From positions 1-64,000 of the forward strand of contig JAUSGI010000005.1 of the NCBI GenBank assembly GCA_030649135.1: a stretch of 64,000 nt of DNA, read 5' to 3'. This document shows positions 5,483 through 60,351 of this stretch, in pieces. The notes under the pieces were generated by a model, which made no database searches, was not told where the DNA came from, and saw only the letters and a program-made list of their open reading frames with translations. The position numbers and the translations under genes were made by a program. The stretch is from a bacterium. GTDB lineage: Bacteria > Patescibacteriota > Minisyncoccia > Phycocordibacterales > Zambryskibacteraceae. Numbering within the stretch: the stretch's first letter is position 1; the number at the start of each line of letters is the position of its first letter.

Positions 5483-5511
5483 TTACTCTCCTAGTATAAC
5501 AAATCCCTAAA
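5483..5511 (-). promoter_or_regulatory. candidate sigma70-type promoter for nusA (TTGCAA, 17 nt spacer, TATACT), followed by a leader hairpin at 5442-5472
   Basis: Read on the minus strand: TTGCAAaaaatttagggatttgtTATACT. The 5' UTR contains a perfect 12-bp stem (GAGAGGTTCGCC gcga GGCGAACCTCTC) about 30 nt upstream of the nusA ATG. Confidence 0.5.
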
Positions 5512-5564
5512 TTTTTTGCAAGCCTTCCTGTCAGAAATCTCCGGTACTGAAGAACTCTGACAGG

Positions 5565-5589
5565 AAGCCGACGTTGCATCGGCTTTTTG
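5565..5589 (+). terminator. plus-strand intrinsic-terminator-like hairpin (AAGCCGA cgttgca TCGGCTT TTTTGA)
   Basis: 7-bp GC-containing stem followed by a T5 run on the plus strand; no plus-strand gene ends here (see findings). Confidence 0.35.
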
Positions 5590-5692
5590 AGGATGGTGAT
5601 TCTCGGGAGTTGGAAGGTCTCCCACCCCTTCTGTTGCCAGGCCGTCCTCACGGCCCCGGTGACCCACGTGATAATCAGCGTATTGCTGCCGG

Positions 5693-6013
5693 CTAGGATG
5701 CCAGCGCAATCTCACTAATCTCAAGCCCCAGAAGATCCGAGAGGTAGGTGTCAACCTCCTCCGGCATCCTCTCCGGCTTGACCACGAGGATCAGGCTGGG
5801 CACCATACCCCTTTCCGGGATAGGAGCCTGCGCCATCACCCACTCGACCTTGGAATCCGACATGCGGTTTTCCACCGCAGCCAGACGCCCAAAGCAAGTG
5901 GTGCAGGCGCACCCCAACCACATCACCTCGAACGCGACGAGATTGCTCTCGACGCGACCGAAGCGAGGGTTGGACCAGCCGTCCACCCGCAGGCGAACGG
6001 TTCGGTTGGCCAT
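5693..6013 (-). CDS. hypothetical small protein with WLGCACTTC (CxCxxC) motif
   Basis: 106 aa from the ATG preceded by GGAGGTGaaatc. GC-rich codon usage, distinct from flanking genes. Possibly a thioredoxin-like or Fe-S-like small protein; not assignable. Confidence 0.45.
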   Translation of the reverse strand: MANRTVRLRVDGWSNPRFGRVESNLVAFEVMWLGCACTTCFGRLAAVENRMSDSKVEWVMAQAPIPERGMVPSLILVVKPERMPEEVDTYLSDLLGLEISEIALAS

Positions 6014-6262
6014 GATTTCACCTCCTTTCATGGCGAGTTATTCACCCGGATACCAACTGATAGCGCCTTCTCGCTAATCAGTCAGAAATCCAAGGCTACA
6101 TTAACGGCTAGGTCGCCCCAATCTTAAAAGAACAGCTGTTTCGCCCTTTTGGGCACATCAGTCGGGATACGCATCCCGAGACAGCAGGGACTAGTTGATA
6201 GTCCCTATGGCGGTTTCATCCGCCCCTCCTTATCCCCAACCTCCCCTGTGCGGGTGAGGATG

Positions 6263-6574
6263 TTACGGGGTCGAATCACCTTTCCCGGCATACTTACTCC
6301 GGTACTCAGCGATGAGCGCGTCCGCCTCCTCAGTCGAGGAGACGACCTGCCGGAGGCTAACCCTCCGGTTGAGCGTGCCGAACCGGCACGCCACGCGCGG
6401 ATTGGCAGCTTCGCCAATCCGAAGGACGAGCAGGTACCCGTCCTTCGTCTTGCGCAAGGAATGAGACATCTCCTCGTCGCAAAACTGGCGCACGACTACG
6501 CCGTCCGCGCTGGGAGCGGAATTGCACCCAGCGAAGAGCACGACCAGACAAAGAACAGCGGCAAACTTGATCAT
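6263..6574 (-). CDS. hypothetical lipoprotein
   Basis: 103 aa; signal peptide with lipobox (VVLFAGC); AGGAGaataagac ATG start; GC-rich. Confidence 0.5.
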   Translation of the reverse strand: MIKFAAVLCLVVLFAGCNSAPSADGVVVRQFCDEEMSHSLRKTKDGYLLVLRIGEAANPRVACRFGTLNRRVSLRQVVSSTEEADALIAEYRSKYAGKGDSTP

Positions 6575-6610
6575 GTCTTATTCTCCTGCGGCCTCGCCGC
6601 TTTCGAACAT

Positions 6611-6660
6611 TAAAGAACTTGAGCGAACCATTTCGCTCTTCTGAAAATCCAATTCCATTA
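6611..6660 (-). promoter_or_regulatory. copy 1 of a duplicated ~50-nt hairpin element located immediately 5' of the lipoprotein gene
   Basis: AAAGAACTTGAGCGAAccATTTCGCTCTTCTGAAaa... shares about 85 percent identity with 6985-7040. Forms a GAGCGAA/TTCGCTC stem extended by AGAA/TTCT. Confidence 0.5.
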
Positions 6661-6676
6661 GATTTTCGGAACAGCG

Positions 6677-6706
6677 GGCGAAGCATTGCACTTCGCCGGG
6701 TTTTTT
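6677..6706 (+). terminator. plus-strand intrinsic-terminator-like hairpin (GGCGAAG cattgca CTTCGCC GGG TTTTTT)
   Basis: Stem-loop followed by T6 on the plus strand, inside the GC-rich block. Confidence 0.35.
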
Positions 6707-6792
6707 AACGTGGTTCACTCCACGGAGCTGTGGTCTCGCCTCGGGATTATGATTTGCCCGAGATCCCCACTCATGTTTGCTCAGGCACCTTC

Positions 6793-6960
6793 GACTTACT
6801 TTCCAAAGCGATACAGCAGCTTTAGGAAGTAAGGAAAGGCCGCGAAGGACTGCGCACCTTTGAAGGCGAGGTTGCATCGCTTGCATACCATCACAAGCTG
6901 CCCGTCATCCGGGTCCTCGACCCCCTCAAGGAGTTTGTCCTTACACTCCGGACAGTCCGT
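6793..6960 (-). CDS. hypothetical 55-aa zinc-ribbon protein (CPEC...CKRC)
   Basis: MTDCPECKDKLLEGVEDPDDGQLVMVCKRCNLAF...; two CxxC pairs; preceded by GGAGGTGGTAAGAG. Below the 60-aa ORF-track cutoff; translated manually. Confidence 0.4.
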
Positions 6961-6984
6961 CATCTCTTACCACCTCCTTCTTCC

Positions 6985-7040
6985 AAAGAACTTGAGCGAA
7001 TTATTTCGCTCTTCTGAAGAACCAAATTTCAATTTTTAGT
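6985..7040 (-). promoter_or_regulatory. copy 2 of the duplicated ~50-nt hairpin element located immediately 5' of the zinc-ribbon gene
   Basis: CAAAGAACTTGAGCGAAttATTTCGCTCTTCTGAAgaaccAAATTTCAATT; same architecture as 6611-6660. Confidence 0.5.
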
Positions 7041-58854: not shown

Positions 58855-59195
58855 GCCAGATTACTTACGAAGAATTTGAAAAAGTGGATATTCGGGTTGG
58901 GAAAATTGTCGAAATTTCTGACTTTCCGGAAGCTCGGAAGCCTGCATACAAACTCAAGATTGATTTCGGCTCCGAGATCGGGATAAAGCAATCAAGTGTT
59001 CAAGCAGTAGGAGCTCATGCAAAAGAAGAGCTTCTCAACTCGCTTGTTTGCTGTGTGGTTAATTTTCCACCAAAGCAAGTGGGGCCATTTAAGTCGGAAG
59101 TCCTAACTCTTGGCTTTAAGAATAGTGCAGGTGACGGGTGGGTTCTTATTGAACCGAAGAGTGATCCGGTAACACTTGGAAGCAAACTAACTTAA
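58851..59195 (+). CDS. csaA: tRNA-binding protein CsaA (Trbp111/EMAP-type OB fold)
   Basis: 114 aa; FEKVDIRVGKIVEI...HPDADKLYV-like pattern. Confidence 0.8.
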   Translation: MSQITYEEFEKVDIRVGKIVEISDFPEARKPAYKLKIDFGSEIGIKQSSVQAVGAHAKEELLNSLVCCVVNFPPKQVGPFKSEVLTLGFKNSAGDGWVLIEPKSDPVTLGSKLT

Positions 59196-59255
59196 TCTTA
59201 TGGCAATCCAAATTACCTAAGCGTGCCCATGACCCCGCAAGGGAATTTGAACCAC

Positions 59256-59283
59256 TTGACATTGGATAGTTTATATGTATAAT
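59256..59283 (+). promoter_or_regulatory. near-consensus sigma70 promoter with extended -10 (TTGACA, 16 nt spacer, TGtATAAT)
   Basis: Followed by about 75 nt of UTR and an AAGGAG SD before the GC-rich gene at 59365. Confidence 0.55.
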
Positions 59284-59364
59284 GGTGCCCAGACGTTCGA
59301 TTGCAGTTAACCGATCTACAGGCGGGGTACGCAAAGTAAGCGTATTCTAGCCAAGGAGTTTGCC

Positions 59365-60045
59365 ATGAAGCTGAAGTTTCCCGACCTGACCAACGTGCTT
59401 GCGTGTGTGAACGGGAACTGCCCCGCCTCGAAGGAGGGTATCCTCCCAGAGGAAGCTCACGCTCGCCTCCGCCAGGACGGCGAGGATGTCGTGGCCGAGC
59501 CGATCTGCCTGGCCTGCGCCGGGGATGCGGCAAAGCGCGGTATCTCCGCGCCTCTCATCTCCTCGCTCATCAAGCGCGAGGAGGAGGCTCGGGCGATCAT
59601 CGTCGCCAACGCGAAGGAGGTCGAGAGCCACGATGCCCGGCAGAGGGAGCTCGATGCTCTCTTTGCCGGTGCCGTGTTCTTCTGCCGGGTTCCCGGCTGT
59701 TCGGCGGCTCCCGAGCCGGTGAACAAGATGTTTTCGGCGGTCTACATCGAGGGCGGGAAGGAGCAGGTCGTTCCGATCTGTCCGATCTGTGTCGATGGCG
59801 CCCACCAGACGGGCGTGAAGGTCACCGACCTTCACGCCACCATCGCGCGGCTCACGCGCGAGGGTAGGGAGCACCTGCTCTACGAGCAGGCGGAGAGAAA
59901 CAAGGTCCCGGCGAATAACTTTCTCGCCGCCTGCCAGAGGGGCGACGCCCGCAATCAGCGGGCGATGCCAGCCGTGGTCGCTCACCACGGCAATGGCAAC
60001 GGTAACGGCCTTGGCAATCGACCGAGGCTGGCGACCAACAGGTAG
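59365..60045 (+). CDS. hypothetical protein with duplicated Cys-ribbon module (very GC-rich)
   Basis: 226 aa; two similar units (CVNGNCPAS...PICLACAGDA and CRVPGCSAA...PICPICVDGA); (HGNG)n Gly/Asn C-terminal tail; about 65 percent GC against about 40 percent in its neighbours. Confidence 0.5.
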   Translation: MKLKFPDLTNVLACVNGNCPASKEGILPEEAHARLRQDGEDVVAEPICLACAGDAAKRGISAPLISSLIKREEEARAIIVANAKEVESHDARQRELDALFAGAVFFCRVPGCSAAPEPVNKMFSAVYIEGGKEQVVPICPICVDGAHQTGVKVTDLHATIARLTREGREHLLYEQAERNKVPANNFLAACQRGDARNQRAMPAVVAHHGNGNGNGLGNRPRLATNR

Positions 60046-60059
60046 TCCGAGCGCAGCAA

Positions 60060-60091
60060 GGCGTGGGGAGGAATCTCCCCACGCCTTTTAA
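60060..60091 (+). terminator. intrinsic terminator (GGCGTGGGGAG gaat CTCCCCACGCC + TTTTAA)
   Basis: 11-bp GC stem followed by a T-run. Confidence 0.7.
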
Positions 60092-60117
60092 CTTTTCTAA
60101 AATAAATTTCTGGGAAA

Positions 60118-60351
60118 TTATTCCTCCTCCACTATTTCCACCTTATACTTCTTGGCGACAAAGAATAGGTAAATTATTTCAAGAACACCGAGCGTATTTA
60201 TTAAGAGAATTACGATAAACCAGTACTTCTGTCTAAGTTCGGCTGATTTCCAAAGGGCGAACCCTTTCCATGTCAGCGTCCATATTATTGCGAGGGCGAT
60301 GAGGAGAGGGTTTGTCTCTACCCATCCAGCCAGTATATTTATTGATTCCAT
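60118..60351 (-). CDS. hypothetical small two-TM membrane protein
   Basis: 77 aa; two hydrophobic helices. Confidence 0.4.
   Translation of the reverse strand: MESINILAGWVETNPLLIALAIIWTLTWKGFALWKSAELRQKYWFIVILLINTLGVLEIIYLFFVAKKYKVEIVEEE

Follow-up and report, generated by a model that had tools for sequence, protein, structure and literature searches.

The window analysed here, positions 1 to 64,000 of contig JAUSGI010000005.1, carries at 59365..60045 on the + strand a gene that a first-pass annotation had singled out as a very GC-rich orphan encoding a cysteine-rich protein. From its ATG start the gene specifies 226 amino acids (aa) plus a stop codon, giving a soluble product of isoelectric point (pI) 7.6 with no transmembrane or other hydrophobic segment, and the reading frame, translation and Cys motifs are as that annotation gave them: ACVNGNCPAS, EPICLAC, FCRVPGC and VPICPICV, followed by the tail HHGNGNGNGLGN. 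Its composition is indeed extreme, at 65.1% GC against 46.6% in the rest of the window, with the step falling at the boundaries of the coding sequence (CDS). GC at the three codon positions (GC1/2/3) of the + frame is 0.67/0.46/0.82 (GC3>GC1>GC2), which is a normal coding pattern, and in a comparison of the seven homologous loci no other frame stays open throughout in every one. Since the N-terminus MK(F/L)(K)FP is common to the homologues, the start codon is fixed. An independent Logan assembly of SRR13727527 contains the identical gene with the same junctions and the same neighbours.

Long shadow open reading frames (ORFs) overlap the gene on both strands, as expected at such GC, and one of them, an antisense ORF of 213 aa at 59347..59988 on the minus strand, had been named at the outset as the possible real gene should it prove better conserved. 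In this genome and at three homologue loci that frame runs without interruption; in P0002, P0005 and P0009, three of the seven, it is interrupted. It shows the wrong coding pattern (GC1/2/3 of 0.83/0.44/0.68, with GC1 above GC3), has no match in family searches and lacks the arrangement of promoter, Shine-Dalgarno sequence and terminator that surrounds the + ORF. Because the antisense frame is broken in three of seven homologues and the + frame is open in all, the + strand gene stands; the antisense ORF is not a gene, and the idea that the real gene lies on the minus strand or in another frame is effectively refuted. Both the claim that the overlapping ORFs are spurious and the claim of a real + strand coding gene with real signals are upheld, the latter by the GC3 pattern, the Shine-Dalgarno sequence, the seven homologues and the matching junctions in the Logan assembly.

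We searched for relatives at several depths. Sequence searches of the protein against Pfam, PHROGs, NCBIfam, PADLOC and the PDB gave nothing significant, and a word-indexed search of 5.8 billion clusters recovered only the protein itself, labelled as a hypothetical protein of a metagenome-assembled genome (MAG). An exhaustive HMMER search of 1.84 billion representatives uncovered seven relatives of 194-226 aa with 27-44% identity (E 3e-42 to 6e-06), all of them singleton clusters, of which the two with organism names come from Candidatus Kaiserbacteria and Candidatus Parcubacteria MAGs. The designation as an orphan thus gives way to that of a tiny family of distant relatives. We dismissed one further HMMER hit, P0008, since its match was compositional; it is a eukaryote-like repeat protein of 2131 aa. 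Word-indexed searching with the family alignment returned only the protein itself together with P0005 and P0009, both known from HMMER, and with the module profile described below it returned nothing.

The protein is built of two homologous modules. Compared with itself, the single sequence scores 45 against 27±5 for shuffles, a score reached by 3 of 500 shuffles, and at the level of family profiles the duplication extends over 86 columns (hhalign Prob 96.6, E 6e-10), in keeping with the earlier description of two related Cys-bearing modules that plausibly bind metal. Module 1 (59386..59664, + strand; aa 8-100) comprises C14-x4-C19, a beta hairpin at residues 32-47, the pair C48-x2-C51 starting a helix at 49-57, and a long helix at 65-100; module 2 (59665..59943, + strand; aa 101-193) repeats the order with C107-x4-C112, a beta hairpin at 123-138, C139-x2-C142 starting a helix at 140-148, and a long helix at 156-189 that ends in the invariant residues F186 and C190. 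The cysteines of the protein (14, 19, 48, 51, 107, 112, 139, 142 and 190) are accordingly spaced C14-x4-C19-x28-C48-x2-C51 and C107-x4-C112-x26-C139-x2-C142, and those at 107, 112, 139 and 190 are invariant in the family. That this is a real gene, and that it belongs to a family of duplicated modules, we regard as very nearly certain.

The pattern of substitution at the fourth ligand position points to a metal site. In an alignment of 15 modules from eight proteins, three cysteines are invariant, while the fourth position is C in nine modules and H or D in the remaining six, the replacements being H in P0002, D in P0003, D in P0004 and H in P0009 for module 2, and D in P0006 and H in P0007 for module 1. 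Four conserved Cys/His/Asp ligand positions per site are present, as in zinc proteins generally, and a position confined to C, H or D is what a metal site would predict and is hard to account for in another way; zinc binding is, on these grounds, probable. AlphaFold2 supplied with the 8-sequence alignment produced a model with a predicted local distance difference test score (pLDDT) of 82.6 overall, ~90 for residues 1-196 and <50 for the tail, against 37 when given the single sequence. In this model each module opens with a CX4C knuckle, continues through a beta hairpin to a CX2[C/H/D] pair that starts a short helix, and closes with a helix of ~35 residues. The first-pass annotation had proposed 4-Cys zinc ribbons, of which the Cys modules are upheld and the ribbon is in doubt: a classical ribbon has two CXXC knuckles on beta hairpins, whereas here the first pair is a CX4C in a loop and the second lies at a helix N-terminus after the beta hairpin, so that the modelled site appears closer to a treble-clef than to a two-knuckle ribbon. 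Fold searches with the model returned generic helices only and no fold match.

Beyond the modules lies a basic, disordered C-terminal tail (59944..60042, + strand; aa 194-226; pLDDT <50), of which residues 197-226 are disordered in the model. Family members combine a basic tail (pI 9.5-12) with a near-neutral body (pI 5.7-8.8), and the tail carries the motif H-x-[DN]-G...G-[FYL]-x-N-x-x-R-[LV]. The Gly/Asn repeat first noted at the C-terminus is present, encoded by a (GGCAAY)n repeat at 59987-60009; it is a lineage-specific expansion of a 6-nt repeat inside this family-conserved basic disordered motif.

Comparison with characterized zinc proteins yielded a single recurrent lead, which stays below every threshold. 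The zinc domain of the aspartate transcarbamoylase (ATCase) regulatory chain, PyrI_C (PF02748), has the same ligand spacing, C-x4-C-x23-28-C-x2-C, and module 2, with C..PGCs.aPEPv.k.fsAV...C..C, resembles C.NsNCishaEPVsssFAV...C..C of Escherichia coli PyrI. The PyrI domain is a protein-protein interaction module, and we propose the same kind of role for the family. Membership in PyrI_C is not reached, however (12.4 bits, E 0.15, against a gathering cutoff of 23.4 bits); two of the eight family members match it, with a best E of 4.6e-4, profile comparison gives an hhalign probability of 3.4%, and the module profile matches ATCase chains of the PDB at E ~0.5. The family also differs from PyrI in that its CX2C pair sits at a predicted helix N-terminus, in having an extra helix of ~35 residues per module, and in lacking both an allosteric domain and a pyrB neighbour. 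Treble-clef and zinc-ribbon proteins such as the ClpX zinc-binding domain and the archaeal C(P)XCG micro-proteins are likewise small, cytoplasmic and non-enzymatic, are often interaction modules, and take four Cys/His ligands from a knuckle and a helix start or second knuckle. The family departs from them in its first knuckle, CX4C instead of CXXC, and in its tandem duplication, long helical spacers and conserved basic tail, and our searches found no sequence or fold match to them.

Anti-sigma ZAS proteins and DksA had been suggested as relatives at the outset, and a regulator that binds RNA polymerase through zinc modules, like ZAS, DksA/TraR or Fin, is the reading they would imply. Cys4 modules combined with long helices are also found in DksA/TraR and Fin, long helices capped by zinc domains bear a loose resemblance to DksA, and weak Fin matches occur in two of eight members (E 0.08). 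Each candidate nevertheless failed. For ZAS, the motif H-x3-C-x2-C is impossible given the positions of the cysteines and of the histidines (32, 89, 147, 157, 170, 207 and 208), and the neighbouring genes are tRNA_bind and DUF5652, not an extracytoplasmic-function (ECF) sigma gene. DksA/TraR (PF01258; C-x2-C-x17-C-x2-C plus a coiled-coil hairpin) gave no Pfam match, and structural searching no match of DksA/GreA type. The anti-sigma-F factor Fin (PF10955) has its best E, 0.08, below Pfam thresholds. The family differs from DksA/TraR and Fin in Cys spacing and in having no coiled-coil hairpin with an acidic tip. The suggested affinity to ZAS or DksA thus finds no support in Pfam or structural searches, and a polymerase-binding regulator of this type, for which we have no positive evidence, seems very improbable. 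We regard the protein as belonging to a very small, unannotated family without detectable sequence or fold relatives, a new addition to the broadly familiar class of small zinc-finger proteins, set apart by an unusual and reproducible signature at the level of the gene.

The first part of this signature lies in the expression signals. Upstream is a sigma-70-type promoter (59256..59283, + strand) composed of TTGACA (59256-59261), a 16-nt AT-rich spacer and TATAAT (59278-59283), a 12/12 match to consensus that is the only such site in the 64 kb, where six sites reach 11/12. The description of a textbook promoter is therefore apt, save for the extended -10 ascribed to it: the TG directly abuts the hexamer (TGTATAAT) instead of forming TGnTATAAT. 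From an inferred start site runs a putative 5' leader of ~75 nt (59290..59364, + strand), containing a bulged hairpin (59321..59352, + strand; 12-bp stem) whose end lies 1 nt upstream of the Shine-Dalgarno sequence AAGGAG (59353..59358, + strand), itself 6 nt upstream of the ATG. Downstream, the strong terminator that had been proposed is evident as an intrinsic terminator (60058..60097, + strand) with a 13-bp perfect GC-rich stem (60058-60087), a 4-nt loop and a T-rich tail, so that the gene has the makings of a complete sigma-70 transcription unit, its hexamers spaced within the usual 16-18 nt and its GC stem followed by a T run. Its signals look like the strongest of the region, which makes the product a promising candidate for a cellular component that is abundant and specific to the lineage.

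The same arrangement recurs among the homologues, whose genes are monocistronic, each as its own transcription unit, in all seven readable loci. Promoters of the form TTGACA...TATAAT with an AT-rich spacer lie upstream of every one (9-12/12, and at least 11/12 in six of seven), leaders are 57-94 nt long, and a GGAG-type Shine-Dalgarno sequence precedes the ATG in six of seven loci, L083 having only a degenerate GGGA. In six of seven loci a GC-rich hairpin, different in sequence from one locus to the next, is predicted to end a few nucleotides upstream of the Shine-Dalgarno sequence (it is weak in L082), and hairpin-plus-T terminators are predicted after all seven genes. Around the translation start (-20 to +20) folding is weak in six of seven loci (-3 to -7 kcal/mol), compared with -10 to -15 kcal/mol for typical 40-nt windows of the coding body. 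Some of these elements are conserved in sequence: upstream alignments reveal leader blocks, including AAGCGTATTCTAGCC, common to the window, L081 and L083, and the 3' untranslated region (UTR) and terminator sequence are common to L081, L082 and L083. Between L082 and L083 we also observed GTTCTAC early in the leader and its complement GTAGAAC across the stop codon (AAG TAG AAC AGATGTACC); this stop-codon segment is identical at 15/15 nt while the proteins are highly diverged, a length too short for statistics.

Flanks conserved at least as well as the coding sequence invite another reading, that of a fast-evolving conflict factor in phage defence, counter-defence or host-symbiont interaction, whose strong signals would serve a sentinel or decoy role. 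L083 and L081 are 66% identical over the upstream 130 nt, 69% over the downstream 62 nt and 59% over the CDS, and L083 and L082 are 71% identical downstream and 56% over the CDS; the coding sequence is thus conserved no better than its non-coding flanks (56-59% vs 66-71%), the three codon positions differ equally (~0.5), the family, restricted in lineage, has few members, all of them singletons, and the disordered tail carries a short linear motif. Such values point to constraint on the regulatory elements, to rapid evolution of the protein, or to the two together. With saturation and a constrained GC3 the comparison of rates cannot be relied on, and functional promoter, leader and terminator elements may account for the conservation of the UTRs. 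Neither defence-island nor prophage neighbours accompany the gene, no PADLOC defence profile matches any of the eight members, and the best E against PHROG phage families is 0.41. A role in conflict strikes us as unlikely.

The second part of the signature is the folding of the message. The minimum free energy (MFE) of the window CDS is -365.6 kcal/mol, against -311.6±7.5 kcal/mol for synonymous shuffles (z -7.2); a codon-position-preserving shuffle gives z -7.4, and the inferred whole transcript, set against dinucleotide shuffles, z -10.5, its predicted fold being far more stable than that of every shuffle. Six homologues are all negative against synonymous shuffles, at z -1.1 to -2.2, compared with +0.3 to -1.7 (median ~-0.2) for five housekeeping genes. 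The strongest of many local hairpins in the CDS is a perfect palindrome at 59812..59838 (+ strand; 12 bp with a 3-nt loop), and others lie on the same strand at 59637-59669 (14 bp) and 59971-59991 (8 bp); together 103 nt fall in Watson-Crick hairpins of at least 7 bp, against 22±17 in synonymous shuffles, which ranks the gene third of 65 window ORFs.

Folding of this order could mean that the transcript is a structured or dual-function RNA in which the ORF has only part of the role. In favour of such a role are the z values of transcript and CDS, the 12-bp perfect hairpin, the rank for hairpin excess, and a preference for the sense strand, which is 31 kcal/mol more stable than the antisense and has twice the G-U pairs (24 vs 12). 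The strong period-3 composition and the conservation at protein level, including ligand-specific substitutions, speak for a message that is read as protein; hairpin positions are not conserved in the homologues, which have only a modest excess of structure; and Rfam covariance models run over 59150-60150 gave nothing at gathering score, the best sub-threshold match being the terminator hairpin. A pairing of 5' leader with 3' CDS seen in the MFE structure (59294-59304 with 60014-60024) was rejected, being no better than with shuffled leaders and not conserved. The unconserved hairpin positions fit generic stability better than a specific RNA fold, and we consider a structured RNA very unlikely. 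The folding z had also prompted an Obelisk- or viroid-like reading, which was set aside on context and fold shape, no search for Oblin homology having been made: this is chromosomal DNA with a promoter and a terminator, and the fold consists of branched local hairpins, not a rod.

Generic stability has precedents. The leaders of ompA, Bacillus subtilis aprE and the ermC type contain 5' stabiliser hairpins of long-lived bacterial mRNAs. Like the gene described here, these systems place a leader stem-loop by a strong Shine-Dalgarno sequence in a monocistronic unit with a strong promoter and terminator; here, by contrast, the hairpin is proximal to the Shine-Dalgarno sequence, not at the extreme 5' end, and the coding body is also GC-enriched and, by prediction, hyper-structured. 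On these sequence features, a design for high expression from a stabilised mRNA has in our estimate a slightly better than even chance of being correct.

The third part is the GC excess itself, for which recent acquisition as a foreign cassette from a high-GC donor, be it bacterium, phage or plasmid, is an alternative explanation, the GC then being donor composition. The 65% GC island is sharply bounded within a 47% genome, the gene brings its own promoter and terminator, genomic contexts differ among family members, and the window contains other GC-rich genes without Pfam matches. Set against this is the behaviour of the family: every member stands 11.5-20.5 GC points above its flanks (seven of seven loci), with GC3 of 0.80-0.96, and gene GC tracks host GC (r 0.95, slope 0.61) over hosts ranging from 41% to 60%. 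An excess that is shared by seven deeply diverged members and scales with the host is unlike the product of independent recent transfers, and argues for a resident gene whose GC is intrinsic and maintained. Promoter and leader share the AT-richness of the host and are conserved with homologues, and the Asp, Phe and Cys codons of the gene are not GC-shifted. The codon bias of NusA and pyrophosphatase (PPase) of the same window recurs in the gene in stronger form (ATC, AAG, CAG, GTC, ACC, GGC), and the gene has no sequence in common with the other GC-rich islands of the window.

Nor do database searches or the surroundings betray a donor. We found no close homologue among 15 billion proteins; phage and plasmid BLAST gave nothing apart from one match at E 0.5; scans of IMG/VR and JGI metagenomes with the family alignment yielded no confirmed loci; and the locus has no integrase, nor is it flanked, as a mobile element would be, by direct or inverted repeats. 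Relatives with named or readable context are all Parcubacteria-like, with flanks lower in GC. The window neighbours (a tRNA-editing domain, tRNA_bind, DUF5652, RuvX and a PilM-like protein) and the closest tRNA_bind loci, from Paceibacterota and Kaiserbacteria, place the host in Paceibacterota. Synteny traced through the tRNA_bind neighbour in 79 genomes showed that the context is not conserved and the insertion site not definable. At L059 (4001-4712), from a distant Patescibacteria genome, RuvX directly follows tRNA_bind, 8 nt apart, as though the spot were variable, a further point in favour of a cassette; the window interval between tRNA_bind and RuvX, which holds our gene and DUF5652, may be such a variable spot. 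Taking these observations together, we judge a recent foreign origin improbable, and treat the gene as native to a Parcubacteria (Paceibacterota) genome, in which it is single-copy and monocistronic.

Around two of the homologues we noted small ORFs. At L081, the P0005 locus, a 115-aa ORF without a Pfam match (1113-1460, + strand) lies ~250 nt downstream of the family gene, in a region GC-richer than the upstream flank (51% vs 44%) and within ~550 nt that are missing from L083, between the terminator and a common downstream segment. At L084-L086, three independent assemblies, a 63-aa ORF with a weak DUF397 match lies 184 nt upstream of the P0004 gene, the Kaiserbacteria homologue.

Our overall reading, which we favour with some confidence, is that the gene is native and highly expressed and encodes a non-enzymatic binding protein with zinc modules, made from a stabilised mRNA. 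Each module would bind one Zn(II) through Cys3-(Cys/His/Asp), the zinc modules would serve as interaction surfaces with the long helices as spacers, and the protein would act as a binder or adaptor, its basic tail a peptide that may contact nucleic acid or a partner protein. The design of the gene would favour strong constitutive expression through an mRNA that lives long and resists nucleases, and its GC excess would be a selected property of the gene and not a foreign trace. Given the basic disordered tail and two zinc modules of the interaction type, the likeliest partner would be a nucleic acid or some part of the core machinery, though a role in binding either is put forward only tentatively from these sequence traits.

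Several observations weigh against this account. The promoter calls are consensus matches only, and expression, metal and binding are all predicted. The extreme excess of structure is confined to this genome and is modest in the homologues, one control gene (tRNA_bind) reaches a folding z of -1.7, and the lack of conservation in hairpin positions fits a genome-specific mutational process as well. The extra G-ending codons (GCG, CGG, AGG, CTG, TCG) lie outside the NusA/PPase bias. On the protein side, P0009 is without the module-1 cysteines, so that at least one lineage can, as judged from sequence, dispense with module 1 as a metal site; the three-dimensional model rests on eight sequences, and a convergence of the four ligands is presumed; and a near-neutral body is atypical of an abundant DNA-binding protein.

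Bacteria of the candidate phyla radiation (CPR) have thousands of unannotated small genes, among which one more hypothetical protein is ordinary. What the present case offers is a previously undescribed family of two-module zinc proteins whose structure, predicted with confidence, lacks fold relatives, and a gene whose GC content and mRNA structure behave as properties of the gene itself across hosts of 41% to 60% GC. If selection on mRNA stability does account for them, natural structure in coding sequences would tune expression in regulator-poor organisms, and GC islands in CPR genomes would have to be equated with horizontal transfer only with caution. More speculatively, and with low expectation that it will hold, one may imagine an 'armoured mRNA' cassette in CPR bacteria, in which selection at the RNA level holds the GC content of the coding body 12-20 points higher than that of the genome, the hairpin packing in this lineage (z -7 to -10) acting together with the leader hairpin and the terminator. 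Were it true, it would imply a message that is long-lived or resistant to nucleases or toxins, or a second function at the RNA level, and two other stretches of the window that are GC-rich, strongly promoted, hyper-structured and without Pfam match, 46353-46760 and 5693-6031, would join the class.

Other GC-rich genes of the window deserve a brief description. GC-rich genes without Pfam matches follow three of the six best promoters of the window. A 234-aa ORF without a Pfam match lies at 41691-42441 (+ strand) after TTGACA-17-CATAAT, and a 135-aa lipoprotein-like ORF, also without a Pfam match, at 46285-46760 (+ strand) after TTGACT-18-TATAAT, with an mRNA folding z of -3.4; both have 57-58% GC and sit just downstream of their near-consensus promoters. 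A GC-rich island at 5500-7000, mostly on the minus strand (55-60% GC), holds small ORFs without Pfam matches, among them 6031..5693 (112 aa, with a Shine-Dalgarno sequence), whose mRNA folding z against synonymous shuffles is -7.6, the lipoprotein-like 6574..6263 (103 aa), and a small CxxC...CxxC ORF that starts near 6963. The ORF-like stretches 6149-6613 (+) and 6578-6886 (-) top the window for excess of perfect hairpins (z 8.5 and 5.7). In this same GC-rich, hairpin-rich island, 6133-6187 (-) gives a sub-threshold match to the type III hammerhead ribozyme (RF00008), at 42.7 bits where the gathering score is 48.5 (E 2e-8 in a local search), in which all three stems are present and the core reads CUGAUGU instead of CUGAUGA.

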